In this document: positions 23,674 through 60,194 of the stretch, piece after piece
Numbering within the stretch: position 1 is the first letter of the stretch
Layout of the letters: every line of letters begins with the position of its first letter
Made by a program: the position numbers and the translations under genes
Notes under the pieces: generated by a model
Databases searched by the model: none
Told to the model about the DNA's origin: nothing
Seen by the model: only the letters and a program-made list of their open reading frames with translations
Source: a virus
Strand: one strand, 5' to 3'
DNA: 64,000 nucleotides
IMG/VR virus record: IMGVR_UViG_3300045988_089740

Positions 23674-23838
23674 TAGTCCCATTGTGGAAAAGAAAAACCC
23701 CTGGAGATTATCCAAGGGCTTAAAATCTTTTTTTATGGCGGCTAACGAGGGGAGAACAGACCCGCCGCCGAAGTCTGTTAAATTATTCATAGCACACAAA
23801 CGTTTGCTTTGTCAAGAAAAATATTTTTTGCTTTTGGC

Positions 23839-27527: not shown

Positions 27528-27599
27528 AGCGCATTGGCGAAGCGGTAACGCACCGGACTTTGACTCCGTTATGCGTGGGTTCGAATCCCACATGCGCCG
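27528..27599 (+). tRNA. tRNA-Gln (anticodon TTG)
   Basis: Cloverleaf: acceptor agcgcat/atgcgcc (A1:C72 mismatch); D-arm GCGAAGCGGTAACGC; anticodon loop ctTTGac; T-arm gtggg-TTCGAAT-cccac. Confidence 0.8.
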
Positions 27600-27673
27600 T
27601 TCTGCATCGAGTTTATATCTTTTTCTTGGTGCAGATTGGATTTTCTTTTTCCTTTTTTAACGAAATACCCTTT

Positions 27674-27728
27674 AACCACCTATCGCAACGGCGATGACTA
27701 AAGGAACAGTCAAACGTTCCGGGTGGTT
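27674..27728 (+). other. three-way-junction structured element in a tRNA spacer
   Basis: aaccacc/ggtggtt closing stem encloses hairpins tcgc-aacg-gcga and tgact-aaaggaac-agtca. No T-loop is present. Confidence 0.3.
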
Positions 27729-27815
27729 TTAACCTTTGTTGCGGCTGGTGGCCAAGAACTGCAACAGTAGTAAAAAGACAGATATCACATCGACCCTGTA
27801 TCTTTTTGCTACTCA

Positions 27816-27889
27816 GGAAGCTTAGCTCAGTTGGTCAGAGTAACCGGCTCATAACCGGTCGGTCCTGGGTTCGAACCCCAGAGCTTCCA
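27816..27889 (+). tRNA. tRNA-Met (CAT anticodon; elongator Met and Ile2-type cannot be told apart by eye)
   Basis: Perfect 74-nt cloverleaf: ggaagct/agcttcc, gctc-agttggtca-gagt, accgg-ctCATaa-ccggt, ctggg-TTCGAAC-cccag. Confidence 0.9.
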
Positions 27890-28188
27890 TTTCTCCCGAA
27901 GCTGTCCATCCGTTTTGTGGATAGAAAAAACTGCCGAATGTGTGTATGTGGGTTGTTTTTCAGAAGGTACGTAACGGCGTAGCCGGATTTGAAAAAGCAA
28001 CTTCCCGTTCGGTTCTGTCTCTGAGTTGAATATGTCGCCAATGAGTGCACGTTGACGACAGGGAGTTTTCAAGAGGCATTTCAGGAATAATCCTCCGAAA
28101 CAACTCCGTGGGACTGGCACGGATGAAAACAGTCTAGTGGAAAGCATAACACGATAAACCTATTGCTAACCCGGGAATCCGGGTTATT

Positions 28189-28260
28189 CGGAATGTGCAA
28201 GTAACTGGGAACGACCTGGTCGTAGACTAGGTCTTGATGGTTCGAATCCATCCGTTCCGC
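28189..28260 (+). tRNA. degenerate tRNA-like sequence (GTA/Tyr-type anticodon; probable pseudo-tRNA)
   Basis: Acceptor cggaatg/cgttccg, T-arm gatgg-TTCGAAT-ccatc, anticodon arm cctgg-tcGTAga-ctagg. There is no pairable D-stem and position 33 is C. Confidence 0.3.
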
Positions 28261-28423
28261 TTGTCTGGAGCCTGAAAGTTTGGCGTGGGAATAGCGCAGG
28301 GCAGCGCATGGGAATGTAATTCCGAGTTCCGGACATGTTTGCTGCCTATCGGATTGTAAAGTGGTCTCCCTTAAAGTAGGCAATAAGTGAACGTGTTGAA
28401 ATGGTTCTTCCAGATATGTACAT

Positions 28424-28495
28424 CGCAGGATGGAGAAGCGGAATCTCGCAAGGTTCATACCCTTGAGAACGGCGGTTCAAATCCGTCTCCTGCAA
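28424..28495 (+). tRNA. tRNA-Met (CAT), initiator-like
   Basis: C1:A72 mismatch (cgcagga/tcctgca), A73, T-loop TTCAAAT, anticodon loop ttCATac, D-arm gaga-agcggaa-tctc. Only two of the three G-C pairs expected for an initiator are in the anticodon stem. Confidence 0.75.
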
Positions 28496-28611
28496 TTAAT
28501 CCGTCTATCGTTCAGCGGATTAAAGCAAATTCTCAATATACCTTCTTTCTATGAATGTGGAACTCAACCCAATTGCTCTTTCATTAGAACAATTGACCGT
28601 GACAGACGTCA

Positions 28612-28682
28612 TGGAATGTAGCTCAGTGGTAGAGCAGTGACTTACAAGTCATGTGTCGCAGGTTCGATTCCTGCCTTTCCGA
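28612..28682 (+). tRNA. atypical tRNA-Val(TAC)-like gene with a non-7-nt anticodon loop
   Basis: Normal D-arm (gctc-agtggta-gagc) and T-arm (gcagg-TTCGATT-cctgc). The anticodon stem gtgac/gtcat leaves a 6-nt loop ttacaa (8 nt if the closing C-G opens). T:T mismatch in the acceptor stem. Confidence 0.45.
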
Positions 28683-33504: not shown

Positions 33505-33531
33505 TAAATAAATCAGTCAGAGAGCCACGTG

Positions 33532-33577
33532 AGAGCCAGACTAAATCCTAAAAGAAAGGAGGTCTGGCTCTATTTTT
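33532..33577 (+). terminator. terminator-like hairpin abutting the TerL start, with the TerL SD in its loop
   Basis: agagccagac (33532-33541) pairs with gtctggctct (33562-33571), then aTTTTTa. The loop carries AAGGAGG. Confidence 0.5.
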
Positions 33578-35320
33578 ATGTCAAAAATTACAGAAGGCTC
33601 ATTTGAATGGTATCGGGCAGTCTTAAATCAAATCATCAGCGGAGATATGTCTGTTTACCAGAATCAGAAAGACTGCCTTGATCTGTTGTTAAACATGAAC
33701 ATTGATTTACCGTTTACGGAGAATCCGGAAGCACAGCAAATGGCAATAAAAGTAAGTAAGTATACTCATAACGTAGCCGCAAGACAAGCTGCACTGACGG
33801 GAAGCGGTAATTTTGATGATATCTACTGGCAGTGTTTGCTGTTGGAAGCACAGAACTATCAGGTTGACAGCGGACTCCTTTACCTTGAAAAGAACCGAAT
33901 CCCGAAAGAACGATTCTACGAACCACGAAGAAATGTGTTCTTACAACATAACATCATAGGGTCACTGCAAGACCTGATGGATGACAAATTAGATATATTT
34001 GCATTAAGCGTACCTCCGGGTTGTGGCAAGAGTACTCTGGAAGATTTCTTTTTATCATTGGTAGGTGGATGGTTCCCGAATGACTTTAACCTGTCTTCAG
34101 CACACAGTAGCATTTTGACACGTTCCCTTTATGATGGCGTTCTGGAAATTATCAATGATCCCGTGGAATACACGTGGCATGAAATATTCCCGAACGTAGA
34201 AATTCAAGGAACAAACGCAAAGGAAACTACAGTCAATCTCGAAAGAAACGGACGATTTAAGACATGGACATTTCGTTCTATTGATGGTTCTTTGACTGGT
34301 GCCACTAGATGCAATAGATTTCTTACTGCCGATGACCTTGTGTCTGGTATTGAAGAAGCTTTGAATAAGAACCGACTTGATACCTTATGGACAAAAGTGG
34401 TAAATGACTTACGTTCCCGTAGACTTGAGGGATGCAAAGAGTTTTATATTGCCACCAGATGGTCAGTACATGACCCTATTGGAAAACTGCAACAACTGTA
34501 TGCCGGAAACCCACGGGCAAGGTTTATTGCAGTGCCAGCACTTGATGAAAATGGAAAGAGCAATTTTCTGTTTACGGTAAATGGATTCTCCGAGAAATAT
34601 TTCAATGATGCTAAGGAATCCATGGATGAAATTTCTTACAACTGTCTTTATCAGCAACAACCGGTAGAACGTGAGGGATTATTATTACCGCCAGATAAAT
34701 TAAAACGATTCTTTTTCAGTAAAGAAGACGTGCCGGATGGATGCGCGGATGAATACATCATCATTCCAGATAAAGATGCAGATGCAATATGGGCGGTATG
34801 CGATACAAAAGATAAAGGAACTGACTTCGAATCATTACCGATTGCATACCAATACGGAGATAAATTTTTCTTTCCTGATGTGGTGTTTGATGACACTACA
34901 GACTATGACATTCTGGATAGAAAGACAGCAGATATTTTGATAAGACATAACCCACATAAGATTCGTTTCGAATCAAATAATGTCGGAAACCGCGTGGCAC
35001 ACAATATTCAGAAAATGATTACTGGAAAGTGCAGAGCTGAAATTGAGACAAAACCAACGTCGGCAAATAAAGAAACAAAGATTCTCGTAAATTCGGACTA
35101 TATAGCAAAACATTTTTATTTTCTGCATCCAAGTCAGTACAAAGCAAAGTCTGATTACGGATTATTTATGGCTAATGTAACTACGTACACTACTAGGGCA
35201 AAAGTACCACATGATGATGGAATCGATTCTTTGGCTATGATGGCTGAGTACACACAAAATCCATTAGGCGGTAAAGCGACAGCAATGCAGAATCCATTAT
35301 GGGGAGGGAGAATGAGATGA
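33578..35320 (+). CDS. Terminase large subunit
   Basis: 580 aa. Walker-A-like PPGCGKS; C-terminal nuclease region with HDDGIDSLAMM. Confidence 0.85.
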   Translation: MSKITEGSFEWYRAVLNQIISGDMSVYQNQKDCLDLLLNMNIDLPFTENPEAQQMAIKVSKYTHNVAARQAALTGSGNFDDIYWQCLLLEAQNYQVDSGLLYLEKNRIPKERFYEPRRNVFLQHNIIGSLQDLMDDKLDIFALSVPPGCGKSTLEDFFLSLVGGWFPNDFNLSSAHSSILTRSLYDGVLEIINDPVEYTWHEIFPNVEIQGTNAKETTVNLERNGRFKTWTFRSIDGSLTGATRCNRFLTADDLVSGIEEALNKNRLDTLWTKVVNDLRSRRLEGCKEFYIATRWSVHDPIGKLQQLYAGNPRARFIAVPALDENGKSNFLFTVNGFSEKYFNDAKESMDEISYNCLYQQQPVEREGLLLPPDKLKRFFFSKEDVPDGCADEYIIIPDKDADAIWAVCDTKDKGTDFESLPIAYQYGDKFFFPDVVFDDTTDYDILDRKTADILIRHNPHKIRFESNNVGNRVAHNIQKMITGKCRAEIETKPTSANKETKILVNSDYIAKHFYFLHPSQYKAKSDYGLFMANVTTYTTRAKVPHDDGIDSLAMMAEYTQNPLGGKATAMQNPLWGGRMR

Positions 35321-35736
35321 ATACACGACAATATCTTGAGCAAGTGCAAGATTCTGATAGAAAAATACAGAATAAAATACAGGAAGAATACCGCTTAAGG
35401 CTTTTGGCAACCAGTATATCTTCTTTTTCAAATGGAGATAAAGTGCAGACTTCCGGCGGAAAAGACCGTGTTGGTGATGCTGTAACCAGAATTGTTGAAT
35501 TGCAGCAGGAAATAGCATCTGATGTCAAGGAACTGGCAGAATTGCAAATGAAAGTTTCCGGAGATATCAATGACATGGAAAACTCCATGTACTCATCCTT
35601 ACTTCATAAGAGATACATAGAATTTAAAAATCTGGTCACGGTCGCAGACGAGATGGGATATTCCGTACAGCATATCCGTTCCTGCCATGGAAAAGCCATT
35701 GAAGCTTTGCGGAAACAAAAGCATTTTGAAAGTTAA
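35317..35736 (+). CDS. sigma-70 region-4-like late regulator (DUF1492/ArpU-RinA-like)
   Basis: C-terminus LLHKRYIEFKNLVTVADEMGYSVQHIRSCHGKAIEALRK is an HTH. Coiled N-terminal half. ATGA overlap with the TerL stop. Confidence 0.55.
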   Translation: MNTRQYLEQVQDSDRKIQNKIQEEYRLRLLATSISSFSNGDKVQTSGGKDRVGDAVTRIVELQQEIASDVKELAELQMKVSGDINDMENSMYSSLLHKRYIEFKNLVTVADEMGYSVQHIRSCHGKAIEALRKQKHFES

Positions 35737-35744
35737 TATGTTTT

Positions 35745-35822
35745 AATATGGAATCATATGTTCTATGTATAATATAATGTAACCTGTAAAACGAGCATCG
35801 GAGAGTAATCCGGTGCTTTTTT
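35745..35822 (+). promoter_or_regulatory. conserved composite element, copy 1 (15-mer, -10 box, leader hairpin with T-run)
   Basis: AATATGGAATCATAT (35745-35759); GGAATC -17 nt- TATAAT (35773-35778); hairpin agcatcgga/tccggtgct (35794-35817) then T6. Confidence 0.6.
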
Positions 35823-35849
35823 AATGCCCAAAAATGGGAGGTGTAGGCA

Positions 35850-37343
35850 GTGGGCAGAAATAAAATGAATTTCATTGACTTATGCCGGGGCGAATTTGGC
35901 CGCAAAATTGCCTATACCGGTGTAAGCCAGATCACAACAGCAAATGTCATAAAAGTTATTTCTAATACAATCGGCATTCATAATAGAAACAGAACTTTGA
36001 TCGATTACTTGTACCGGTACTACAAAGGAGATCAGCCGATCCTTTATAGAGAGAAGTTGGTTCGTCCGGAAATTAATAACCGAGTGTGTGAAAATCATGC
36101 ACTTGAAGTTGTTCGCTTTAAATCATCTCAGACATATGGAGAACCTATTCAGTATGTATGTAAAAAGAGCAGGGCTACAGAACGGGTGAATAAACAGGTC
36201 GATTTATTCAATGATTACTTAAAAGAAGCAAATGCAGAAGCACGTAACATTGAACTTGGAACCTATCAGAGTGCCGTAGGAACTGCATATAAAGCTATTC
36301 TAAAAGAGGATGATTGGACGAGCGACAGTGATATTTCTCCATTCAACATTTTTATACCATATCCTAGCGATTGCTATATTGTTTACTCTCGTAAGAACGG
36401 AAAGCCAATGCTCTCAGTGCAGATTCTTAAGGATGAAAACGAACAGCAGTATTATTTATGCTTTTCAGCAAAACAATATTTCGAGATTCAGAATGGACAG
36501 ATTACAAAAACCGGCATCAATGGTTTTGGTGGCATCCCGGTAGTTGAGTACCCGAATAACCACGATCGTCTTTCTGATATCGAGATTGCGATAACCATGT
36601 TTGACACTATGAACAACATGCAGTCAAACAGGATGGATGGCGTAGAACAGTTCGTGCAAGCCCTTATGAAGTTTAAGAACTGTGAGATTGATGAAAGCGA
36701 ATTTTTGAAAATGATCAAGCTCGGCGCTATCTCTGTAAAGGATACTGGAAATGGTTGCCAGTCAGATGTTGACCTGATGACCGCTGAACTGAATCAAACA
36801 GAAAGCCAAGTTGCAAAAGACGATATCTACAGCAACATGCTTATTGTTGAAGGTATGCCGGACAGGCAGCAACAATCTTCTGGCGATACCGGCCAAGCTG
36901 TATATCTCAGAAATGGATGGGATTTTGCAGAACGTAGAGCAAAACTGGATGAACCATTTATCCGGGAAGCTGAGAAAGCAAGTGCCAGAATCATTCTGAA
37001 TATCATCCGACAGACCACAAAGGATATTTCAATCTCAACAAGAGATTTTGATGTAAAGATAACCAGAAACCCGACAGATAACATGCTTGTCAAAGCACAG
37101 GCTCTTGACTATCTGTTTAAGAATAAAATTCATCCGCTGATTGCACTGATTACTTGCGGATTATTTAGTGATCCACAAAAGGTATATGAAATGAGTTTGC
37201 CTTACTTGGGAACTGTATATCCCGAACTGGCAGACCCGGACGCGGAAATGCAGAAAGCACAACAATTGATTGATAAAAACGGTAAGAATTCGGCTGAAAT
37301 TGATTCAACGGTAAATTCTTCGGCTATCAATCAAAACTCGTAA
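35850..37343 (+). CDS. Portal protein (SPP1 gp6-like)
   Basis: 497 aa following TerL. YRYYKGDQPILYRE motif. GTG start 6 nt after GGGAGGTG. Confidence 0.85.
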   Translation: MGRNKMNFIDLCRGEFGRKIAYTGVSQITTANVIKVISNTIGIHNRNRTLIDYLYRYYKGDQPILYREKLVRPEINNRVCENHALEVVRFKSSQTYGEPIQYVCKKSRATERVNKQVDLFNDYLKEANAEARNIELGTYQSAVGTAYKAILKEDDWTSDSDISPFNIFIPYPSDCYIVYSRKNGKPMLSVQILKDENEQQYYLCFSAKQYFEIQNGQITKTGINGFGGIPVVEYPNNHDRLSDIEIAITMFDTMNNMQSNRMDGVEQFVQALMKFKNCEIDESEFLKMIKLGAISVKDTGNGCQSDVDLMTAELNQTESQVAKDDIYSNMLIVEGMPDRQQQSSGDTGQAVYLRNGWDFAERRAKLDEPFIREAEKASARIILNIIRQTTKDISISTRDFDVKITRNPTDNMLVKAQALDYLFKNKIHPLIALITCGLFSDPQKVYEMSLPYLGTVYPELADPDAEMQKAQQLIDKNGKNSAEIDSTVNSSAINQNS

Positions 37344-37355
37344 ATTCAATTATCA

Positions 37356-37392
37356 AAGGAACCAAGGAATAACATCCAAGGTTCCTTTTTTA
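37356..37392 (+). terminator. intrinsic terminator after the portal gene
   Basis: aaggaacc/ggttcctt stem followed by TTTTTT. Confidence 0.6.
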
Positions 37393-37499
37393 ATACAAAA
37401 AAAATAATGCAACAGCCCGTGAGCGTAAATCGGGTACAGATCATGTGCGGAGCGAACCGTGTGAAAAAAGTGTGATGGTCTGAAAGAAAGGAGATTTCT

Positions 37500-40560: not shown

Positions 40561-40815
40561 ATGAATTATACAGACTTTTCAGAAGATGAAAGAAAGTTTT
40601 ATCTAAGTGAATCCGGGTTTGATTCCCGAGAAAAAGAGTTTTTCCGGTTGAGAGTTTATGAGGAAAAGACGTTGTTTGAAACAGCAGAGATTATGGGGTA
40701 TAGTCCTAGAACCATTGACCGTATAAACCGAAAAGTAAAAAAGAAGATTGTTAAAGTTGCCCCGATGTACTATCGGGGCTTTTCTTTGTATCATGGCGAA
40801 AACATGGCGAAATAG
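40561..40815 (+). CDS. sigma-70 region-4-like HTH protein
   Basis: SREKEFFRLRVYEEKTLFETAEIMGYSPRTIDRINRKVKKKI. ATG 40561 follows AAGGGAGGA. Confidence 0.55.
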   Translation: MNYTDFSEDERKFYLSESGFDSREKEFFRLRVYEEKTLFETAEIMGYSPRTIDRINRKVKKKIVKVAPMYYRGFSLYHGENMAK

Positions 40816-40891
40816 TGTCGTTTAAATACTTAAGTTTCTCCCCTATAATATAAGTATAGAGAAAAGCTTACAGAGATGGGAGGAACACACT

Positions 40892-48322: not shown

Positions 48323-48327
48323 AACGG

Positions 48328-48358
48328 AGCCCGGGATTTTCCGGGCTTCTATTTTTTT
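48328..48358 (+). terminator. intrinsic terminator
   Basis: agcccgg/ccgggct stem followed by a T-run. Confidence 0.6.
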
Positions 48359-48412
48359 ACCTTAAAACTAGATAAAAATAATCTAGTTTATTATACGATT
48401 TGCCTATGCAAA

Positions 48413-48486
48413 AATATGGAATCATATGGCTTGTTTTTTGTACAATTAAGATGCGAAGCATCTACCGGAAAGGTAGGTGCTTTTTT
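48413..48486 (+). promoter_or_regulatory. conserved composite element, copy 2
   Basis: AATATGGAATCATAT (48413-48427); GGAATC -17 nt- TACAAT (48441-48446); hairpin agcatctacc/ggtaggtgct (48457-48481) then T6. Confidence 0.6.
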
Positions 48487-48537
48487 CATGCCAAAAAAAT
48501 AAATCATAAAAGATAATTGAACAGGCAAGGTGATTAA

Positions 48538-49297: not shown

Positions 49298-49320
49298 AGA
49301 GCCATTACGGCTCTTTTTTA
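49298..49320 (+). terminator. intrinsic terminator
   Basis: agagcc/ggctct stem followed by TTTTTT. Confidence 0.55.
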
Positions 49321-50804: not shown

Positions 50805-53800
50805 ATGGCTGATAATACCATTGATACCCTTGATATACAAATAAATAGTAGTACCAGGAACGCTACAAAAGCATTGGGAAATCTGGCTAAAAAGTTAAAG
50901 GATGTTGACACAGCACTGGGAAACGTCAATACCGGCGGGCTTAGAAACTATGCTCGTGAAATCGGAAGAGTATCAGCGGCTTTACAGACATTAAGCAGGA
51001 CAAATGTTAGTGTGCCTAATTTGTCTGGATTAACCGGACAACTTCGTAGTTTATCGAAAGTTAATTTTTCGGAATTGGAAACAAGTGCAAAAAGCTTTCA
51101 AGAATTAGCTGTAGGATTGGGCTCTTTGAAAAATGTTTCTAGTGTTTCTATACCTAAAATAGATGCTAAAAACATCAATTCTGTGATTAATGTTATAAAT
51201 AAGTTTCAAACAATTGATACTGCAAAAATTCAACCATCCATAAATGCTATTAAAGAAATATCAAGAAGCATGTCGTTGCTGGGTAATTTGAATTTCAAAG
51301 AAAATGGTCTGATAAATGCGGCAAATGCATTAAGACGTTTATCACAATCAGACATTAAAAACTTTGATACAGACAAATTAATTTCCATATTCAGAAGTCT
51401 TCAGGCTTTTTCAACGCTTCCAGATATTTCATCAGGCATAAACAGATTGGTTTCATCTCTTGCAAAATTAGTGGCCGCAGGAGATAAATCGAATCAAGCG
51501 GCTAAAGGATTAGAATTACTTGGAATAAAATTAAACGGAGTCATAAGAAATATTTCATACGCAGGCGAAGTCTCTGATTCCATTAATTCGTTGATACAAG
51601 CCCTTGCAAAATTGGCATCAGCAGGAAATAAAACAGGCCAGACGGCATCGCAGTTAGCAAATCTTGCAGTAGAATTAAAGAAGTTTTTTGCAGCTATGAA
51701 AAACGCACCACAAATCAGTCAGAGCACTGTGCGCGTTATAGTTGCACTGGGACAGTTAGCGGCGGCTGGTGGTAAGGCTAGTGCATCAATGAATTCTGTA
51801 TCCAGATCCCTTGAAGGACTTTCTATGATAAGTTCTAGTTTATCAAGCGCCATGAGCTCACTTGCTAATATGGCAAAATCGGGATTTGGTACTTTAACAT
51901 CATCTATTTCAGGGCTGGTAAATAAGGGAAAAGAATTAAAAAGTACATCATTCAATATCAGCTCTTTGCTTAAAACCGTTCTTGGCTTCAAAGCGGCTTC
52001 GGCCGTGATGAGCAAATTCAGCGAAGCCATGGGTGGAAAAGGAATCCTTGAGATCGGTTCCGATATCGCTGAGGTCGAGAACGTTGTAGACGTTGCTTTT
52101 GGAAGCATGGCAGATCAGGCATACAAGTTTGCGTCCACGGCGACGAAACAGTTCGGACTGTCGGAACTGGCAGCAAAGAACTATTCCGGAACCATGATGG
52201 CAATGCTGAATGCTTCTGGTGTAGCACAGGAATCCGCTGCGAAGATGTCAACAACTCTTGCAGGATTAGCCGGAGATTTGGCATCTTTTTATAACATTGA
52301 TACTGATACCGCCTTCTACAAAATAAGGGCGGGCATTTCAGGTGAAATCGAGCCTTTAAAACAGCTCGGAATAAATCTTTCGATCGCAAATTTACAAGAG
52401 TATGCGTTGTCACAAGGAATTACGACAGCCTATAATTCCATGACGCAGGCTCAAAAAACGATGCTGCGCTATAACTACATCATGTCAGTTACAAGTGCGC
52501 AGCAGGGGGACTTCGCCAGGACCGCCGGATCTTGGGCCAATCAAGTACGTCTCCTTACTTTGAACATCCAGTCCCTTGCATCCGCCATAGGGCAGGGCTT
52601 AATCGCAGCGGTTCTTCCGGGAATCAAAGCTCTTAATGCCCTGATGTCCAAACTTATGCAGGCAGCAGAAACATTCAGAAACTTTATGTATGTTTTAATG
52701 GGTAAAAAAATCAAAGGATCTACCAGCGGAGTTGTGAATGATCTTGCCGGACTTGATAACGCAGCAACAGATCTTAGCAATATGGAAAATGCCGGAGATG
52801 ACGCAGCATCCGGACTTGATAACGCCACTTCATCAGCAAAAGCATTAAAGAAAGCCCTTTCAGTACTTCCTTTTGATGAATTAAATCAGCTTACTGATAA
52901 TTCGAGTAGTTCTGGATCAACGCCGAGTACCGGAACAAAGAAAACCAGTACCGGTGCAACACCTGACCTTGGGCTTGGTGGCATCACGGATCAGATTGAT
53001 GATGCGCTGAACAAAGAAGAAACCCCTATCAATAAATGGGCTGAAAAAATCCGCAAAGCTTTTCTTAACCATGACTGGAAAGGACTTGGAAAGACCATTG
53101 CAGATATGCTTAATATCGGAATCCGGAAGATTTATGATGTTATAAGTTGGAAAAATGTTGGCCCTAAAATCACGGCTTTCACAGACGCTTTTACAGAAAC
53201 ATTTAACAGTCTTGTTGATAATATTGACTGGAACCTGATGGGACGCACTTTGGGGGCTGGTCTTAACACCATCGTTAACACTATGAACCAGCTCCTTGAT
53301 GGAATTGATTGGTATAACTTAGGAGCCAAATTTGGAACCGGAATTACAGGACTTGTAAAAGAAGTAAATTGGACTAATCTTGGAAACCTTATTGGAAATT
53401 CATTTATGAAAGCCTGGGACATGTTCGCTGGCTTGGTAAATCATCTGCCCTATGCAGATATCGGAAAAGCATTTGCTGATTTATTAAATGGAGTTTTCGA
53501 AAAAATTAACTTCACAAACATAGCACACGTATTAGCTACTGGTTTAAACGGTGCGTTTGATTCTCTTAAATCATTTACTGTAAATTTCAAATGGGATGAT
53601 CTTGTCGATAACATTACTGGCGGCATCACCACATTCATGCAGCAATTTAAGTGGAAAGAAAACGGTCAGAAGCTTGAGGAATTTATAGATAACCTTTTGA
53701 CATCCCTTGTCGACATTGCGAACGGTGTAGATTGGGAAGCTTTTGGACATAATATAGGTGTTTTCCTTAGCGAAATAGACTGGTCGAAACACTTGTCACA

Positions 53801-55646
53801 AATCACAACAGTTATCAGCGAGGTTCTGGGCGGAATTTGGAATGGTCTTGGTACCACATCGGCAGGAACTTTTATTCAGGCTATAGCAACATTTGCCATT
53901 GGTATGAAATTAATGCCATTTGTCGATGGAATCGTAAAATTTTTCACAGGTGATACTGTAATTGGTTTGCTGTATTCAGCTGTTCGGAACATGTTAGGCC
54001 CAGCATTGGCTTCAGCAGCATCTACTACGATTCCAGCGTTTGGCTCATCACTCGCAGCTCTTGTAGGAACCGGTGGCGGAATAGCTATTGCTGCCGCAGG
54101 AGCAGTAATTCTTACCAAAAAACTTGTAGGGTTGTTTGAAACTATGCAAGGTGGAAATGGAATGTCTACTCAGTACGGCGGTTATCTGCATGACTATGCT
54201 GCAAAACTGAATGAATTAACCACAATCACAAATGATCAATCAGAAGCCCTGTGGAAAATGATTGAAAAAGATGAAGAGCTTGGTAAATCTCATGATGAAA
54301 TGTATTCTGATATGATTGAAAAGCTTAAAGAATACGGAGTTTCGACAGAACAAGCCAGAAGTGCTCTTGAACAATATGGTGCACAGGCTGGCGTTTCTGC
54401 TGAGTTTATCGATAGTATGACAGATAAGATTCAGGCATTAGGAAACGGCTTTTCTGAAAGTACGGGCCAGATTGATATGTCTTCTCTTAGTGCAAAAGAA
54501 GCTATTAGCACGCTTTCTGACACTTTGTACCTTTTAAGCTTAAAAGGTGATGAATTTAGTGGTACATATATCGGCGTAAGAGATCAGTTACAGAACACCG
54601 GAGGAAGCGTGCAAAGTGCAAACGAAGCGTTAAAAATAGTATACAATGCATTACAAAATGCAGGAGTACCTCTCGATGATTTGAATAAAAAATTATCGAA
54701 AGATTTTCCAAACGCTACCGGAGCTGTTACTACTGCGGTTAAAAATAATATTGTTGGTGCGCAACAAAAAATTTCCTCAACTATGATGACAGCAAGTGTT
54801 GATACAAAAAATGCAACAAATAAAATGGTAAGCACTACTACAAGCGATCTCGCTGAAATCCAGAAGCAAGCAGATGGCTATATGAAAGGTGTTGACACCA
54901 GCACGACAACTCACTGGGGAAATTCTTCCCGTGAAGTAACCAAAAATGTCCGTCAGATGAAGATTGATGCAAGTACAGAGCTTGGCAGAATGGACGAAAC
55001 CGTCCGCAGCCACTTTGGAAGCCAGTACAGGATTGCCTTAAGTAAATGGCAAGATCTTGGAAGAGATATTTCTTCCTACATCCGCGGAACTATGAACACA
55101 AGTATTGGAAGTGGAATTAATACTGTAGTTGATACGATTAAAAGAAATTTCAGTGATATGTACAGTGTTGGCCAGAATGCTATGCAGAATCTCCGAAACG
55201 GCATGGAGTCAATCAACATCAGAACTCCACATATTTCCATGGATTACACTGATTGGCAAGAGGGACGGACCCACAAGTGGCGGTACAATTCGAGAGTTGA
55301 CTGGTATGCCAAAGGCGGTCTTTTCAATGCAGCATCCGTGATCGGTGTCGGTGAAGCCGGAAAGGAAGCAGTCCTTCCGCTGACCAACAAACAGGCCATG
55401 AAGAGCATTGCTGACAGCATTACCGGAAACATGCCGGAAGGAAGCGTTGGACTGAGCAAGGAAGAAATGACACAGGCAGTGACACAGGGTGTTGCCATGG
55501 CAATGATGAACATGAACACCGGCGGAAGCACATCTCCGCAGTACATTTCCAACACGATCAATCTGGACGGCCGGGCGTTTGCGAAAGCTATCACAAAAGC
55601 CCAGCAGGACAACAACCGGCGTAAAAATCCGAGTCCGGCATGGTAG
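50805..55646 (+). CDS. Tape measure protein
   Basis: 1613 aa, Ala/Ser/Leu-rich helical repeats, with the expected position. Confidence 0.9.
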   Translation: MADNTIDTLDIQINSSTRNATKALGNLAKKLKDVDTALGNVNTGGLRNYAREIGRVSAALQTLSRTNVSVPNLSGLTGQLRSLSKVNFSELETSAKSFQELAVGLGSLKNVSSVSIPKIDAKNINSVINVINKFQTIDTAKIQPSINAIKEISRSMSLLGNLNFKENGLINAANALRRLSQSDIKNFDTDKLISIFRSLQAFSTLPDISSGINRLVSSLAKLVAAGDKSNQAAKGLELLGIKLNGVIRNISYAGEVSDSINSLIQALAKLASAGNKTGQTASQLANLAVELKKFFAAMKNAPQISQSTVRVIVALGQLAAAGGKASASMNSVSRSLEGLSMISSSLSSAMSSLANMAKSGFGTLTSSISGLVNKGKELKSTSFNISSLLKTVLGFKAASAVMSKFSEAMGGKGILEIGSDIAEVENVVDVAFGSMADQAYKFASTATKQFGLSELAAKNYSGTMMAMLNASGVAQESAAKMSTTLAGLAGDLASFYNIDTDTAFYKIRAGISGEIEPLKQLGINLSIANLQEYALSQGITTAYNSMTQAQKTMLRYNYIMSVTSAQQGDFARTAGSWANQVRLLTLNIQSLASAIGQGLIAAVLPGIKALNALMSKLMQAAETFRNFMYVLMGKKIKGSTSGVVNDLAGLDNAATDLSNMENAGDDAASGLDNATSSAKALKKALSVLPFDELNQLTDNSSSSGSTPSTGTKKTSTGATPDLGLGGITDQIDDALNKEETPINKWAEKIRKAFLNHDWKGLGKTIADMLNIGIRKIYDVISWKNVGPKITAFTDAFTETFNSLVDNIDWNLMGRTLGAGLNTIVNTMNQLLDGIDWYNLGAKFGTGITGLVKEVNWTNLGNLIGNSFMKAWDMFAGLVNHLPYADIGKAFADLLNGVFEKINFTNIAHVLATGLNGAFDSLKSFTVNFKWDDLVDNITGGITTFMQQFKWKENGQKLEEFIDNLLTSLVDIANGVDWEAFGHNIGVFLSEIDWSKHLSQITTVISEVLGGIWNGLGTTSAGTFIQAIATFAIGMKLMPFVDGIVKFFTGDTVIGLLYSAVRNMLGPALASAASTTIPAFGSSLAALVGTGGGIAIAAAGAVILTKKLVGLFETMQGGNGMSTQYGGYLHDYAAKLNELTTITNDQSEALWKMIEKDEELGKSHDEMYSDMIEKLKEYGVSTEQARSALEQYGAQAGVSAEFIDSMTDKIQALGNGFSESTGQIDMSSLSAKEAISTLSDTLYLLSLKGDEFSGTYIGVRDQLQNTGGSVQSANEALKIVYNALQNAGVPLDDLNKKLSKDFPNATGAVTTAVKNNIVGAQQKISSTMMTASVDTKNATNKMVSTTTSDLAEIQKQADGYMKGVDTSTTTHWGNSSREVTKNVRQMKIDASTELGRMDETVRSHFGSQYRIALSKWQDLGRDISSYIRGTMNTSIGSGINTVVDTIKRNFSDMYSVGQNAMQNLRNGMESINIRTPHISMDYTDWQEGRTHKWRYNSRVDWYAKGGLFNAASVIGVGEAGKEAVLPLTNKQAMKSIADSITGNMPEGSVGLSKEEMTQAVTQGVAMAMMNMNTGGSTSPQYISNTINLDGRAFAKAITKAQQDNNRRKNPSPAW

Positions 55647-55846: not shown

Positions 55847-56056
55847 ATGAAGCCATATGGATTAGTTGACAGAAATATTATACTCAACAATAGTCTATCG
55901 TTGGAAGCAAAAGGAATATACGGCATATTGATGAGCCTTGATGGAACAGACTTTGAACTGGATGAAATCTGCGAATATGTTTCAGAGAGCAAATCAGTTG
56001 TCGAAAAAGCTTTAAACGAATTGGTAAATCATGGATTTATTTCATTCGAAAAATAA
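55847..56056 (+). CDS. winged-HTH-like small protein
   Basis: LSLEAKGIYGILMSLDG...SESKSVVEKALNELVNHGFISFEK. The ORF opens at 55838. Confidence 0.45.
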   Translation: MKPYGLVDRNIILNNSLSLEAKGIYGILMSLDGTDFELDEICEYVSESKSVVEKALNELVNHGFISFEK

Positions 56057-56171
56057 TACGGTAAAACCAACAGGCTTACCCGACGGGGGACAAGCGGAAA
56101 TGCCTTGCCGCCTGCCTGTTGATTTACATACATTTCAAGGCATCTTATATACGAAAGGCAGGTATTTTTCT

Positions 56172-56537
56172 ATGGCAAAATCTTTTAATTACCGTAAATA
56201 TTACAAAGACTATTATGGGATTGATTTCGACAGTAGCTATGTAATCCACCATATTGACTTTGACAGAAGCAACAATGATATTAATAATTTAATTTTATTA
56301 CCTTCGAAGTTACATAGCCGATATCACTTTTTGTTAACTGGATTTAATCCTGATAAAAACAATAAAGGAATTGCAAGTCTTGATTTTAAAATCGTCTCAG
56401 AATGCGGGAGCATCCCTATGTTTGGAATAAACATGATGAAAAATTTGTGTGAAACAATGGTAGAAATTGATAAATGGGTAAGAATAAAATCCGACATGGA
56501 TAAAGAAAAATACAATAAAGAAAAGTACGGTATTTAA
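56172..56537 (+). CDS. HNH endonuclease
   Basis: VIHHIDFDRSNNDINNLILLPSKLHSRYH. The ORF opens at 56031. Confidence 0.6.
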   Translation: MAKSFNYRKYYKDYYGIDFDSSYVIHHIDFDRSNNDINNLILLPSKLHSRYHFLLTGFNPDKNNKGIASLDFKIVSECGSIPMFGINMMKNLCETMVEIDKWVRIKSDMDKEKYNKEKYGI

Positions 56538-56670
56538 TATTTAGTTAAATTCAGTAGGCTAGGTTGGCCGCCGAAAAGTGTAAACCTTGATGCACCTGCC
56601 TACTGTTTTTATAAATCAAGGATTCTGGCATATTATGGAGATGCCAACGACCAACAAGGAGGTTATCATT

Positions 56671-57648
56671 ATGAACAAAGAGTTTAATTATCCAAGAGAT
56701 TTTAAAGGAGTATGGATCCCGAAACAGGTTTTTCTTGATGAAAGATTAAATGCGATTGAAAAATTGATTCTGGCAGAAGTCGACAGTCTTGATGTAGAAG
56801 GAAGCGAAGGATGCTTTGCGAGCAATGAATATTTAGCAAATTTCTGTCAATGCAGTGTAACAAAAGTTTCTACTTCTGTTTCCAAGTTAATAAAGCTTGG
56901 ATATCTTTATGTGCTTAAAAATGACGGAAGAAAAAGGTACTTAAAGAGTAGGCTTTCAAATTTTGAAAGCCAGGAATTTAAAAACAGTAATTCAGACACG
57001 CCAAATATGAAACATAGTAATAATAGTTATGAATACAGTGTAGATGATATAGATAAAGACTTTATTTTATCAAATAAAGAGAAAAAGACTTTACCAAAGA
57101 ATGGTAAAGGTTCAAAGACTTCTGCTCCTAATAATATTAATATACTAGATATAAATAATATACCCTCACGGACAACTGAGCAGAAGGAAGTGTACCGCAA
57201 GCAAAAACAGAAAAATCGTTCTGAGAAATACCGGGACGAAGATGTACCACAGATTCTGTATAATGAGTTTGATTCACTGTATGGTGAACAGGAGAATATT
57301 CTGGAAGATCATGACATCTGTCTGACCATGGCAGTTATCGCTTATTACTTCAAGCAGTACCGGGAGCACATGGGCGAACAGCATATAATGATTTCAACCA
57401 AATACGCAAATCAGTTCATGGGAGTTATCATTGGCGATGATTCGCCACTTCTGAAAGCGGACGTGGAAGAAAAAGATGAACTCCGGTTCTATCAGGACAT
57501 GATAGACGAGTTTTTTAAATCAGACCTTGGTCAGCGAAATGGAAAAGACTTCGATCGTCATATCTGGCTGTTCTTCACTGAAGAGAATCAGAGAATCTTG
57601 TGTGAACGGGTAAAGCAGAAATGGGATAACCAAGAATACATTGACTAA
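56671..57648 (+). CDS. replisome-organizer/DnaD-like N-domain protein
   Basis: GVWIPKQVFLDERLNAIEKLILAEVDSL...NEYLANFCQCSVTKVSTSVSKLIKLGYL. ATG follows CAAGGAGG. Confidence 0.5.
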   Translation: MNKEFNYPRDFKGVWIPKQVFLDERLNAIEKLILAEVDSLDVEGSEGCFASNEYLANFCQCSVTKVSTSVSKLIKLGYLYVLKNDGRKRYLKSRLSNFESQEFKNSNSDTPNMKHSNNSYEYSVDDIDKDFILSNKEKKTLPKNGKGSKTSAPNNINILDINNIPSRTTEQKEVYRKQKQKNRSEKYRDEDVPQILYNEFDSLYGEQENILEDHDICLTMAVIAYYFKQYREHMGEQHIMISTKYANQFMGVIIGDDSPLLKADVEEKDELRFYQDMIDEFFKSDLGQRNGKDFDRHIWLFFTEENQRILCERVKQKWDNQEYID

Positions 57649-59665: not shown

Positions 59666-59725
59666 AGCTATGGACCGGGGAGAAATCTCCGGTTCTTTCT
59701 TTTTTGCTTGAATGCCATATGTAAA

Positions 59726-59800
59726 AATATGGAATCATATTATATTAAAAACGTATAATGAATAATCATAAAGCGTCTATCTTTTGATAGGCGCTTTTTT
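59726..59800 (+). promoter_or_regulatory. conserved composite element, copy 3
   Basis: AATATGGAATCATAT (59726-59740); GGAATC -17 nt- TATAAT (59754-59759); hairpin agcgtctat/ataggcgct (59772-59795) then T6. Confidence 0.6.
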
Positions 59801-59828
59801 CATGTACAAAAATGAGGTGATTATTCAT

Positions 59829-60194
59829 ATGGCAGACGTTTTTATAAAAATCAATGGTGCAGCGATGCCTTGCCCATCTTCTTTTACCTGGGGGCTGCAA
59901 GATATTTCAGCATCAGAATCTGGACGTACTGATGATACGATCATGCATAAAAACCGCGTTGGCCAGAAACGGAAACTGGCTGTTGGATGGAATGCACCGG
60001 ATTGGGATACTGCTTGCAAGATCGTACAGGCTGTAAACCCAGAGTATTTTTCCGTTGAATATCCTGATCTTTTATCTGGAAATAAACATGAAGTAAGAAC
60101 TTTTTATGTCGGTGACCGGTCTGCCCCGTTCAAATATTGGTGGGTAGGAAATCAGCGGATGGAAGGTTTGCAGTTTGATTTGATTGAAAAGTAG
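59829..60194 (+). CDS. distal-tail (Dit)-position small tail protein
   Basis: 121 aa between the TMP region and the tail fibre. ATG follows GAGGTGA. The ORF opens at 59784. Confidence 0.4.
   Translation: MADVFIKINGAAMPCPSSFTWGLQDISASESGRTDDTIMHKNRVGQKRKLAVGWNAPDWDTACKIVQAVNPEYFSVEYPDLLSGNKHEVRTFYVGDRSAPFKYWWVGNQRMEGLQFDLIEK

Follow-up and report, generated by a model that had tools for sequence, protein, structure and literature searches.

A candidate Ltr-gated late-promoter cassette with a terminator-shaped leader hairpin, repeated three times in a phage genome

Regulators of the Ltr/RinA type turn on packaging and lysis in a sizeable fraction of the temperate phages of Gram-positive bacteria, and in this way they govern how virulence and resistance genes are transduced and how pathogenicity islands are mobilised. 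The Ltr superfamily comprises RinA (phi11/80alpha), ArpU (phiFL2A), LtrA (sigma70_r4), LtrB (DUF1492) and LtrC (phi55, phi13) (PMC3753634, PMC3152322, PMC13123087). For RinA, ArpU and LtrC, activation is lost when the repeats are mutated, and the repeats are bound by purified Ltr (Quiles-Puchalt 2013, PMC3753634). The Ltr promoter of phi13, with its repeats, TATA box and mapped start, has been validated by mutation (2026, PMC13123087). For phi11/80alpha the published 5′ end, reported to be primary, lies downstream of a terminator (PMC3152322). A functional terminator in the RinA/Ltr intergenic region was inferred by the authors, read-through from Pcad being nil without Ltr. The original RinA papers have the site far from the mapped start, with a terminator between the two.

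In the 64,000-nt stretch of viral DNA analysed here (hereafter the window), we find a known kind of element, an Ltr late promoter, with a new and testable twist. As in other Ltr-superfamily promoters, the gene immediately upstream encodes a regulator of ~15 kDa whose C-terminus is sigma-4-like, direct repeats lie at or inside the 3′ (distal) end of its gene with a sigma-A-type TATA box (the -10 box) next to them, the repeats are regulator-specific, and a terminator-like hairpin is found in the same intergenic region. Unlike in those systems, ltr here lies between terL and the portal gene, not before terS or HNH, and the genome has three cassettes where the others have a single late promoter; in both respects a typical trait of the family is absent, though this trait is not a strict definition. 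Also, the repeat cores of 4-5 bp overlap the -35 position here; the repeats of phi13 span -107 to -42, and in 80alpha the distance exceeds 155 bp. The hairpin is clearly 3′ of the -10 box, while the Ltr literature either has the terminator before the promoter or omits it. It may be noted that the S. aureus phages phi13 and 80alpha do have a terminator-like, non-homologous hairpin at the same spot: in phi13 a hairpin with T5AT5 at ~+29 to +58 of the mapped start, and in 80alpha a hairpin with T6 between the RinA repeats and terS. The reporter used for phi13 stops at +50, within the U-run. The sole 80alpha match of our hairpin model (13 bits) is elsewhere, over the RinA repeats. The order of box, -10 box, terminator hairpin and gene, present three times per genome and conserved across distant phages, sharpens the vague 'activator' model into the question of whether Ltr alters read-through of the hairpin.

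Repeats, -10 boxes and the adjacent regulator

The sequence AATATGGAATCATAT is present exactly at 35745, 48413 and 59726 on the + strand, with a total of three copies in the 64,000-nt window. No copy with 1-2 mismatches was found in the window, and the seven matches with 3 mismatches are at chance level. Similarly, GGAATC-N17-TA(T/C)AAT is found only at these three places in the window, against 0.34 expected. The three exact copies and the constant 17-nt spacing from GGAATC to the -10 box had both been reported in the initial annotation, and they hold after the mismatch scan and the pattern search. The true unit is, however, three phased repeats and not the 15-mer palindrome. Each copy has a further repeat exactly 10 bp 5′ of the 15-mer (ATATG at 35736, CTATG at 48404 and ATATG at 59717); the three repeats follow one another at 10-bp intervals, their ATAT cores near -49, -39 and -29, and the second and third fall within the 15-mer. 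The 15-mer is not a sigma -35 hexamer.

In copy 1 the Ltr box occupies 35736..35760 (ATAT cores at 35736, 35746 and 35756; 15-mer at 35745-35759), its repeats starting at the ltr stop codon (35734-35736); both this position and the 10-bp phasing agree with the Ltr binding sites known for RinA, ArpU and LtrC (PMC3753634). The hexamer at the -35 position, GGAATC (35750-35755), lies within the box, and the -10 box TATAAT is at 35773..35778, which would place the transcription start at ~35785-35787. Two overlapping TATAAT boxes are present in this copy, and only the second keeps the 17-bp spacing. In copy 2 (48404..48446) the box has CTATG at 48404, ATATG at 48414, CATATG at 48423 and the 15-mer at 48413-48427, and the -10 box TACAAT at 48441-48446 is preceded by TG. 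In copy 3 (59717..59759) the box has ATATG at 59717, ATATG at 59727, CATAT at 59736 and the 15-mer at 59726-59740, and the -10 box TATAAT is at 59754-59759. All these features are on the + strand. Judged by their letters, the three -10 boxes (TATAAT, TACAAT and TATAAT) are of the host sigma-A consensus. Second -10-like hexamers adjoin the -10 box (TATAAT/ATAAT, TAAGAT and AATAAT) at differing offsets in AT-rich sequence.

The gene whose stop codon abuts copy 1 (ltr, 35317..35736, + strand) encodes a 139-aa DUF1492/LtrB-like late transcriptional regulator, and the homologues P0001 and P0006 confirm this start. The protein matches Pfam DUF1492 at 27.1 bits (cut-off 21.5), Sigma70_r4 at 23.0 bits (slightly below the cut-off of 24.1) and phrog_36 'transcriptional regulator' in PHROG (E 7.7e-18); DUF1492 (LtrB) is a family of the Ltr late-activator superfamily (PMC3753634). 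In its AF2 model (pLDDT 89), helices at residues 3-38 and 51-85 are followed by a C-terminal 3-helix domain (90-135), which Foldseek aligns with the domains by which ECF sigma factors bind the -35 element. The model holds only the helical hairpin and the sigma region-4 domain, a sigma-2 domain being absent, and the regulator matches DUF1492 and sigma r4 but none of the Q families. The DUF1492/LtrB match and the Ltr-type anatomy support the earlier proposal of a late promoter tied to this gene. The proposal that its product is a sigma factor does not stand, since the region-4 domain comes without sigma-2 and the -10 boxes are host-type, and the same two observations speak against an alternative-sigma promoter. 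The product of a second sigma-like gene (40561-40815), also suggested as reader of the element, probably is not, as this gene comes with a promoter of its own and with repeats of another kind. Its terminator is placed upstream of its boxes in the same window, and therefore the downstream placement in the cassettes is not forced by layout.

Box and regulator change together across relatives. The window and relative L119 have ATATG repeats with the recognition helix ...YSVQHIRSCH..., L123 and L165 have RCAC repeats with ...FSEDYIKHLH..., L559 has ATAC repeats with ...YSEIHIKKKH..., and L172 has GGACAC repeats. On comparing these four lineages, the repeat core was found to change with the recognition helix in three related ones (ATATG, RCAC and ATAC), by which the repeats appear specific to their cognate regulator. 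In the relatives the repeats are direct and keep this phase (GACAC/AGCAC/AACAC, GGACAC twice, ATAC three times), and the spacer drifts while box and -10 box are kept. A TATAAT-like hexamer lies 16-18 bp from the last repeat in most relatives and Ltr-homologue loci read, with differing spacers, and the layout of repeats followed by a TATA box next to the regulator gene is seen in at least 20 homologue loci. A second lineage of ~80 kb has at least 3 copies per genome of its own box. In all window-type relatives the copy 3 element stands upstream of the Dit-like gene. Direct scans of IMG/VR were less productive: the exact 15-mer gave mostly chance matches, about 35 of the 118 loci being relatives that are too close for covariation, and GCACTGAATAACAC fared no better, finding only the portal copy of that box's lineage.

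The leader hairpin and its family

A hairpin begins 15, 10 and 12 nt after the -10 box in copies 1, 2 and 3, respectively, on the + strand. The copy 1 hairpin (35794..35834) has arms 35794-35802/35809-35817 and loop GAGTAA and matches the covariance model at 56.9 bits; its U-run (35817-35822) is followed by the tail AATGCCC and A5, an SD at 35836-35843 and the portal GTG at 35850. In copy 2 (48457..48499; 46.9 bits) the arms are 48457-48466/48472-48481 with loop GGAAA, followed by the U-run (48481-48486), the tail CATGCC and A7, and the ATG of the next gene at 48538. In copy 3 (59772..59812; 51.2 bits) the arms are 59772-59781/59786-59795 with loop TTTT, followed by the U-run (59795-59800), the tail CATGTAC and A5, an SD at 59814-59819 and an ATG at 59829. 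The stems of 9-10 bp have fold energies of -15.8, -18.0 and -17.6 kcal/mol (hairpins 1, 2 and 3), and the z-scores of the full leaders range from -3.4 to -4.9. With the starts assumed above, hairpin and U6 would span ~+8 to +37, +4 to +33 and +6 to +35. Reading all three stems bears out what the initial annotation had described in every copy, namely a U·G fifth pair, upper stems that differ but stay complementary, and T6 with (A/C)ATG after the hairpin. The reverse strand folds more weakly, and the conserved G·U pairs make the structure strand-specific. A GC-rich stem of at least 5 bp, a short loop and a U-run directly 3′ are the marks of an intrinsic terminator, and the copy 1 hairpin is picked up by the terminator scan; this shape suggests terminator activity.

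Several other roles for the leader were tried and rejected. An RNA switch was discarded because no alternative fold was found in the leaders. A start site inside the 5′ arm, by which transcripts would escape termination, is at odds with stems that begin 10-15 nt after the -10 box, 3′ of any standard start. The ATG after the U-run was rejected as the start of a leader peptide on account of the missing SD and inconsistent reading frames. Pairing of the U-run with the A-run, pairing of GGGC with GCCC and a boxA-like reading of GCUUUUCUUA were none of them supported well enough. A model of Ltr-gated cassettes does not account for the conserved tail, ATGCC followed by A-rich sequence, that comes 3′ of the U-run.

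Hairpins of the same family were found 3′ of Ltr homologues in phages of gut Clostridia, Streptococcus, Erysipelothrix and Gardnerella. In an alignment of 17 sequences 100% of the cells are paired with compensatory change in 6 of the 9 pairs, and in one of 40 sequences 99.1% are paired with compensatory change in 8 of 9, these percentages being inflated by alignments that are partly hand-picked or model-fitted. The covariation that the initial annotation had wished to see put to a statistical check scores 0.78 in the 17 sequences, above the shuffled (0.24) and slid (at most 0.19) controls. At copy 3, a C-G pair is replaced in compensatory fashion by U-A in L342, and G-C has become G·U in L340 and L357. 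The leader hairpin is a genuine, co-varying, terminator-shaped RNA structure. Most family members keep the U·G pair, the loop AG(A/C/U)AAU and the stem base are conserved, and all 26 matches above the unrelated-DNA background have a U-run, with 5-7 U among the 8 nt that begin with the stem-closing U. Family matches score 23-57 bits, most of them at least 26, compared with a best score of 22.8 bits in 844 kb of unrelated viral DNA and at most 20 bits for the other terminators of the window. Among 18 annotated phage loci with an Ltr homologue, about 16 have a hairpin and U-run after the -10 box and ahead of the next gene. A BLASTN search with the 56-nt hairpin gave almost no matches, making the covariance model necessary. 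Among the matches of the pattern GGGCTTTTYTNATGCC, true leaders were mixed with numerous terminators of the generic sort and with a recurrent RNA-like family that is not related to them. No Rfam 15 family reaches its gathering threshold at the window sites; a permissive search gave only 20-26 bits against gathering scores of 48-56, including sub-threshold likenesses to the Streptococcus sRNAs SpF25 (23 bits, E 0.078), SSRC10 (26 bits) and SpF11 (20 bits). A description of the hairpin was not found in the literature, of which our coverage is incomplete, and we regard the family as a so far undescribed, widely conserved RNA motif. Well supported and unannotated, it marks the starts of late operons in uncultivated gut phages.

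A possible mechanism and its competitors

Each copy is probably a late-promoter cassette for sigma-A that is gated by Ltr, carries a terminator close to the promoter and serves as a self-contained restart of transcription. The 139-aa Ltr would bind the three repeats through its sigma region-4-like HTH, probably as tandem copies, the repeats being one helical turn apart and overlapping the -35 position. It would then replace the missing -35 contact, and host sigma-A RNA polymerase would use the -10 box 16-18 bp downstream. Homology to the experimentally studied Ltr systems, together with covariation, suggests these two steps. The first 30-40 nt of the transcript would form the GC-based hairpin and U-run, an intrinsic terminator by shape, which in the absence of Ltr would stop both upstream read-through and leaky starts from the strong -10 box. 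With Ltr, polymerase started at the cassette may pass the hairpin, either because Ltr stays with the polymerase, as lambda Q does, or because a high firing rate is set against a partial terminator. Triplication would re-drive the head, tail and baseplate blocks, which are parted by terminator-ended accessory genes. For this phage, start site, termination and read-through are all inferred. Since the hairpin is genuine, co-varying and terminator-shaped, Q-like read-through is a reasonable idea, and the cassette suggests that regulators of the Ltr/RinA type must, in addition, assist RNA polymerase past a stop signal.

Parts of this arrangement are found in other systems. In anatomy only, it is like lambda pR′/qut/tR′/Q, where an intrinsic terminator follows almost at once on the late promoter; the DNA site of the regulator likewise lies inside the promoter, and the late region has further terminators (here, e.g., 37358-37391 and 49298-49314). 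Unlike in lambda, Ltr is unrelated to Q in sequence and fold, no conserved sigma-dependent or other pause-inducing element was found at a fixed position in the three cassettes, and the terminator is sequence-conserved and would lie at +8 to +37 instead of +194. As in the T4 MotA/AsiA middle promoters, a good sigma-70-type -10 box comes without a -35 box, and an activator site near -30 replaces the -35 contact. However, no AsiA-like partner was identified, Ltr is sigma-4-like whereas MotA has another fold, and tandem phased repeats stand in place of a single MotA box. In conAn of pLS20 (PMC8191782) and in Tn916 (PMC11658703), too, the operon promoter is followed by terminators that check spurious expression until an element-encoded factor acts, but these use a large structured RNA, with a processivity protein in addition in conAn, where we see one small hairpin.

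In a bolder version, to which we give rather less credence than doubt, the Ltr/RinA/ArpU 'activators' would be promoter-loaded antiterminators built on a sigma region-4 fold, with the hairpin as obligate partner. Ltr at -35 would take over the polymerase contact of sigma region 4, stay for ~40 nt and block the hairpin, so that only Ltr-initiated polymerases would enter the late genes. The hairpin (AGCYU...RGCU, U-run, AUGCC) would then be a new class of cis-regulatory RNA in phages of Firmicutes and Actinobacteria. If true, promoter-loaded antitermination would account for the action of RinA over a distance of more than 155 bp with a terminator in between. We found no literature that names RinA or Ltr an antiterminator within our incomplete coverage.

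Alternatively, the hairpin may only insulate by ending the unit before it, be this the terL-ltr operon or an accessory block, with an Ltr-dependent start downstream of it, Ltr acting from a distance and TATAAT not being the late -10 box. This we consider unlikely. A rinA-dependent, exonuclease-resistant 5′ end was mapped 23 nt before terS, downstream of the terminator (Ferrer 2011, PMC3152322); if the start position of phi11/80alpha were valid here, the hairpin would only insulate and TATAAT would need another explanation. Insulation also agrees with the relatives in which the terminators upstream of copies 2 and 3 are missing and the composite follows directly on the stop codon, making the hairpin the sole terminator of the upstream gene, and the conserved T-run with (A/C)ATGCC, which lacks an explanation, could be a promoter element. 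Yet the U-run and the portal start codon are no more than 28 nt apart, and the -10-like hexamers (TTTAAT and TTTCAT) are without A at position 2, whereas the TATAAT-like hexamer keeps its distance from the last repeat across most relatives and homologue loci in spite of differing spacers. The TATA box of phi13 adjoins the repeats as it does here and is essential, and the mapped start there is upstream of the hairpin (PMC13123087). Copies 2 and 3, moreover, already have separate upstream terminators, and the second regulator of the same phage has its terminator upstream of the boxes.

Stem-loops close to the 5′ end stabilise Bacillus mRNAs, and the initial annotation had offered a 5′ stabiliser as one reading: at the extreme 5′ end, the hairpin would guard late mRNAs from decay by RNase J1/RNase Y (Firmicutes), and the U-run would be incidental. 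This fits the window copies, where the stems would begin at ~+3 to +9 if the start is 6-8 nt after the -10 box, and the strand-specific structure agrees with it. It does not fit the relatives in which the hairpin is ~20-80 nt from the -10 box (L172, L385, L419 and L420-L437), too far to cap the 5′ end, nor the U-run directly after the stem in all family members, which a stabiliser does not need; we hold this role to be quite improbable. For read-through transcripts, the roles of stabiliser and terminator are compatible. A short terminated RNA of ~35-60 nt could instead be the product itself, trans-acting or a mark of lysogeny, like the 6S/StxS RNA of lambda/Stx-phage pR′-tR′, for which Stx phages give a precedent (PMC7547250). 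The anatomy of promoter plus terminator, the conservation of loop and stem base beyond the needs of termination and the likenesses to Streptococcus sRNAs would suit such an RNA. But those Rfam scores are far under the gathering thresholds, the product in the window would be little beyond the hairpin with upper stem and loop differing among copies, and the cassette is always directly before a structural gene with the SD 10-30 nt away, all of which makes it very improbable. Least credible of all, to the point of being hardly worth retaining, is that the 15-mer (TATG-N4-CATA) is the operator of a dimeric repressor that shuts a constitutive extended -10 promoter. ATATG-GAAT-CATAT is indeed an inverted repeat, and copies 1 and 2 have TG upstream of the -10 hexamer. 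However, the additional repeat, 10 bp further upstream, runs in the direct orientation, and the homologous positions in relatives are direct repeats, which argues for tandem binding of an activator and against a dimer operator. The adjacent gene is of an activator family in which repeat mutations abolish expression and do not derepress it. The palindrome, put forward earlier as a possible operator, is thus incidental, the ATAT core being self-complementary.

Neighbouring genes and host

Ordinary terminators had been noted before copies 2 and 3, and we recovered both, at 48326-48349 and ~59673-59700. The one ending the block upstream of copy 2 (48326..48359, + strand), predicted by the terminator scan, has 10 pairs, 7 of them GC, then a T-rich stretch, and lies ~55 nt before the copy. 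The other (59673..59700, + strand; GGACCGGGGAGAAATCTCCGGTTC followed by TTTCTTTTTT) ends the accessory block of 55.7-59.7 kb ~17 nt before copy 3. A regulator-gated cassette at the far end of each accessory block suggests how late operons tolerate inserts. Of the '7-kb island' described before copy 2, the part at 40.9-44.5 kb is not a recent insertion, as its genes are conserved in L119 and L123. Copy 2 does stand before the tail-completion gene in the window, as described, while close relatives sometimes have one more gene between the two. A profile search of genome contigs with the Ltr alignment gave no match, and one with the portal alignment gave a single MAG labelled Bacteroidales, a label that is probably a binning artefact. 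Annotated relatives with an Ltr 25-41% identical suggest an Oscillospirales or Ruminococcus-like host.

Repeated cassettes where structural genes resume

On scanning the window, three exact + strand copies of the 15-mer AATATGGAATCATAT were found, at 35745, 48413 and 59726; no copy with 1 or 2 mismatches was found in the window, and 3-mismatch matches are at chance level. GGAATC-N17-TA(T/C)AAT is likewise present in the window only at the three cassette sites, against 0.34 expected. These pattern scans bear out the initial annotation, which had reported three exact 15-mers, each with GGAATC followed after 17 nt by TATAAT, TACAAT or TATAAT. Also, each copy has one more ATATG or CTATG, set exactly 10 bp ahead of the 15-mer's first ATATG, so the unit consists of three phased repeats, whose ATAT cores are located in the + strand sequence at 35736/35746/35756 in copy 1, 48405/48415/48424 in copy 2 and 59717/59727/59737 in copy 3. 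The hairpin arms, read from the same strand, are at 35794-35802/35809-35817, 48457-48466/48472-48481 and 59772-59781/59786-59795 respectively. The stem base is AGC(A/G)UC...G(G)(U/C)GCU with a U·G at pair 5 in 3/3, the upper stems differ in sequence but keep their complementarity, and each hairpin is followed by T6 and then (A/C)ATG; all of these features had been described earlier and were confirmed on reading the sequence. The fold energies of the hairpins range from -15.8 to -18.0 kcal/mol and the z-scores of the whole leaders from -3.4 to -4.9, the fold of the opposite strand being weaker.

Copy 1 (about 35736-35834) is placed between the gene for a predicted 139-aa late transcriptional regulator, Ltr (35317-35736), and the portal gene (35850-37343), with head genes continuing up to 39576. 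As the regulator gene lies between terL (33578-35320) and the portal gene, terL is upstream of the putative Ltr-controlled promoter, whereas the Ltr phages described have their regulator ahead of HNH, terS and terL. Copy 2 (48404-48499) precedes the tail genes (from 48538), with a very large ORF of 1613 aa in the tail block (50805-55646). Copy 3 (59717-59812) comes after an accessory block (55.7-59.7 kb) encoding HNH_3, HTH_36, DUF5052 and Big_2 proteins, and is followed by a DUF6711 gene (59829-60194; 24.0 bits, below the cut-off of 27), earlier called Dit-like, and a tail protein gene (60206-63574). Copies 2 and 3 therefore stand where structural genes resume after terminator-ended blocks, of which the one ahead of copy 2 contains a unit on the reverse strand (46.4-47.4 kb); the ordinary terminators claimed upstream of both copies are indeed present. 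In relatives the surroundings of these two copies vary (one gene more, or the upstream terminator missing) but the cassettes are kept, which suggests that the cassette is a portable restart point holding all structural blocks under one regulator. It may be noted that the Rfam int-alpA RNA motif (RF02996) scores above threshold twice in the accessory block, at 56068-56140 (42.6 bits) within the 5′ part of the HNH_3 endonuclease ORF (56031-56537), and at 56552-56621 (55.2 bits) between this ORF and the HTH_36 ORF (56587-57648), whose start it overlaps. A four-tRNA cluster is present in the early/middle region (27528-28682, + strand).

The regulator and its putative binding site

The 139-aa protein matches Pfam DUF1492 above the cut-off, Sigma70_r4 just below it, and PHROG 36 ‘transcriptional regulator’. 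In the Ltr superfamily of late transcriptional regulators of Gram-positive phages, DUF1492 corresponds to family III (LtrB) and sigma70_r4 to family II (LtrA) (PMC3753634), so the family assignment is well supported by homology. Its AlphaFold model (pLDDT 89, pTM 0.74) consists of an extended helical hairpin and, after it, a domain of three helices, which Foldseek aligns to the -35-binding region-4 domains of ECF sigma factors over 50-62 residues at an rmsd of 1-4 Å; the probability is about 1 and the E-values are just 0.06-1, which is to be expected with such a small domain. No sigma-2 domain was found in the model or by Foldseek. Going by this model, the regulator could bind a -35-like site but would not recognise a -10 box or open DNA, which would fit the host-type consensus -10 boxes. 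The initial annotation had taken it for a sigma-like factor reading the element; an Ltr-family regulator does adjoin copy 1, but the missing sigma-2 domain and the host-type -10 boxes speak against a sigma factor proper.

Experimentally studied Ltr proteins bind 2-4 direct repeats beginning just downstream of their own gene or within its 3′ end; activation is lost when the repeats are replaced, and specificity changes over when they are exchanged (PMC3753634). In phage phi13 the repeats, an essential TATA box and the mapped start follow in that order (PMC13123087). The copy 1 repeats lie exactly so relative to the regulator gene. From this position, and from relatives in which Ltr and the repeat core differ while three 10-bp-phased repeats are kept, we identify the 15-mer as part of the putative Ltr binding site. 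The cores are ATATG/CATAT in four related loci (L119-L122) with 71% Ltr identity to the window, GACAC/AGCAC/AACAC in L123 and L165-L171 (43-45%), GGACAC/GGACAC/GGGCAA in L172 (27%) and ATAC three times in the L559 lineage. The predicted recognition helix varies along with the core (YSVQHIRSCH, FSEDYIKHLH, YSEIHIKKKH), so that the putative repeats and their covariation with the protein are well supported at the level of sequence comparison. In all lineages compared the last core starts 16-18 bp upstream of the -10 box, which would put the cores at about -49, -39 and -29, spanning the -35 position. The L559 lineage (phages of ~80 kb) has at least three cassettes per genome, all with its own ATAC box; its independent multi-copy state indicates that repeated use of a single box characterises this phage group. 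The 15-mer had also been proposed as a TATG-N4-CATA palindromic operator. This look arises because ATAT is self-complementary, and the plain direct repeats of relatives argue against a dimer operator. The element is a predicted Ltr-dependent late promoter, a known kind, and we consider the promoter and box part of the explanation highly probable.

A family of leader hairpins

In close relatives the hairpin changes are limited to the loop, G-C to G·U, or compensatory C-G to U-A. A wider tblastn search of Ltr against annotated phages gave 25 records, including ‘Ca. Heliusvirales’ gut phages assigned to Ruminococcus, Oscillospirales, Acutalibacteraceae and Christensenellales, Streptococcus Javan prophages, Erysipelothrix phi1605, Gardnerella vB_Gva_AB1 and R. 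gnavus phiRM10. About 16 of the 18 fetched loci share one order: ltr stop codon, phased repeats, TATAAT-like box, 15-45 nt A-rich, hairpin, U-run, ATGCC(C), SD and then the first late gene, which in most cases codes for an HNH endonuclease. The most frequent stem is AGCCUUGUGGG...CCUGCAGGGCU, with variants including AGCCUCAUGGG...CCCGUGGGGCU and AGCCUUCACGGG...CCUGUGAGGGCU; AG(A/C/U)AAU is a common loop, and its AGUAAU form is also present in the copy 1 loop (GAGUAA, then U). The tail after the U-run is conserved as ATGCC and then an A-run. The initial annotation had called for a search of related phages and a test of stem covariation, and both turned out in its favour. For the 9-bp structure in 17 diverse sequences, 100% of 152 cells are paired, and in 40 model-fitted sequences 99.1%, values that are optimistic as the sequences were picked or fitted with structure in mind. 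Stronger evidence comes from compensatory changes (6/9 and 8/9 pairs) and slid controls: the covariation score is 0.78 against 0.24 in shuffles (0/500 reach the observed value) and at most 0.19 in slid controls for the 17 sequences, and 0.73 against 0.21 and at most 0.10 for the 40. The fifth pair is U·G in 15/17 and 27/37. A covariance model scores the window copies at 57, 51 and 47 bits and the homologue loci at 23-55 bits, as against at most 20 bits for all other window terminators and a top match of 22.8 bits in 844 kb of unrelated viral DNA. This gap reveals a specific family rather than generic terminators. All 26 matches above the unrelated-DNA background have 5-7 U among the 8 nt counted from the U that closes the stem, and the conserved hairpin with its U-run is accordingly well supported.

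Rfam gave nothing at threshold for the hairpin, only weak resemblances to three Streptococcus sRNAs, SpF25 (23 bits, E 0.078), SSRC10 (26 bits) and SpF11 (20 bits), over the cassette region at window 35718-35826 and in two further loci (L421 1907-2019, L423 1913-2047). As a lead only, these sRNAs might represent terminated transcripts from the leaders of late promoters in prophages. The best non-cassette match in the window (23677-23725, - strand, 19.8 bits, E 0.0055) reads GCCCUUGGA...UCCAGGGGU, then UUUUUCUUUU, with no TATAAT box or repeats nearby, and is probably the ordinary terminator of a reverse-strand gene. Cassette-like tails, (A)ATG(C/T) or AATAC and then CAAAAA, follow hairpin and T-run sites before terL (33531-33590) and after portal (37358-37410); the window has 6 occurrences of the motif ‘T5-6, 0-4 nt, TG(C/T), 0-3 nt, AAAA’, where shuffles give 2.2 +/- 1.4. 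An unrelated recurrent sequence, ...GCAGAGCGCGGTTAATGCTC...GGGCTTTTTTTATGCC with ...ATATTTGCA... ahead, is found in many viral contigs (IMG/VR; L448, L456, L462, L479, L480, L491, L497, L509, L530, L544 and L558) and has the look of a further conserved family, of small RNAs or of terminators. The sole phage-group match among species-representative genomes is a contig of ‘Ca. Scybalousia scybalohippi’, Bacteroidales (L419, MAG JAGHSX010000018.1); its Firmicutes-like SD sequences, and its repeats, hairpin and portal gene in the same layout, make the Bacteroidales label probably a binning artefact.

Promoter, putative terminator and proposed read-through

Promoter first and then a terminator-like hairpin is a general order. 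For phi13 the published coordinates (TATA box -15 to -5, repeats -107 to -42; PMC13123087) put the start at about position 4067 of its locus (L438; region 3961-4143), and we find a hairpin CUCUCAC/GUGAGGG with U5AU5 at about +29 to +58, 25 nt before the next ATG. The published reporter ends at +50 (PMC13123087), inside the U-run, and is hence uninformative on termination. In 80alpha (L418 1722-1907), two RinA repeats TGGCAGT are followed after about 100 nt by a 9-bp hairpin with T6 and then terS. Two S. aureus phage papers (including PMC3152322) concluded that the intergenic region between Ltr/RinA and the late genes has a functional terminator, since read-through from upstream Pcad gave no reporter signal without Ltr. 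It was also remarked that >155 bp separate the RinA site from the mapped 5′ end, and that this calls for a ‘more complex’ mechanism (PMC3152322). The phi13 and 80alpha papers do not discuss the hairpin as downstream of the promoter. In the literature searched we found no multiple Ltr cassettes per genome, no Ltr repeats overlapping the -35 position and no conserved leader hairpin/terminator downstream of an Ltr promoter, the last being a candidate new RNA motif.

The explanation we favour, with somewhat better than even confidence overall, is an Ltr-gated promoter starting 6-9 nt after the -10 box, whose transcripts would meet a promoter-proximal terminator at the leader hairpin. This terminator would block read-through from upstream as well as leaky starts, and Ltr-started polymerases would pass it, either because Ltr stays on the polymerase (Q-like) or because a partial terminator is overcome by dense firing. 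Such Ltr-linked read-through is put forward tentatively, as is a candidate role of Ltr proteins as antiterminators. An RNA switch is unlikely as no alternative fold of the whole leaders was found in the three window copies. The 80alpha mapping would suit a hairpin that only insulates, with the Ltr-dependent start downstream of it, but just 28 nt would remain before the portal gene, the TATAAT-like hexamer is widely conserved and the phi13 data point the other way, so we hold this to be unlikely. Somewhat less probable again is the 5′ stabiliser suggested initially, which fits the window, and the window only, and leaves the U-run unaccounted for. We give still less weight to a functional short RNA as the cassette product, and the least to a repressor operator at the box, given the direct repeats in relatives.

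The second small sigma region-4-like gene (40561-40815, 84 aa) had also been named as a possible reader of the element, but it has its own control region in the opposite order. The last part of its CDS contains a hairpin GCCCCG/CGGGGC (40759-40779) with TTTTCTTT (to 40787) and a tandem CATGGCGAAA repeat (at 40792 and 40803) that occurs nowhere else in the window; TATAAT follows at 40844-40849 with no hairpin after it, and the next gene starts at 40892. L119 and L123 share this layout, though their loop codons vary. The gene appears to encode a second Ltr-like regulator served by a promoter of its own, in the order terminator, boxes and -10 box, which means that in this phage a terminator can stand ahead of a promoter; the hairpin downstream of the Ltr promoters looks like a design feature.
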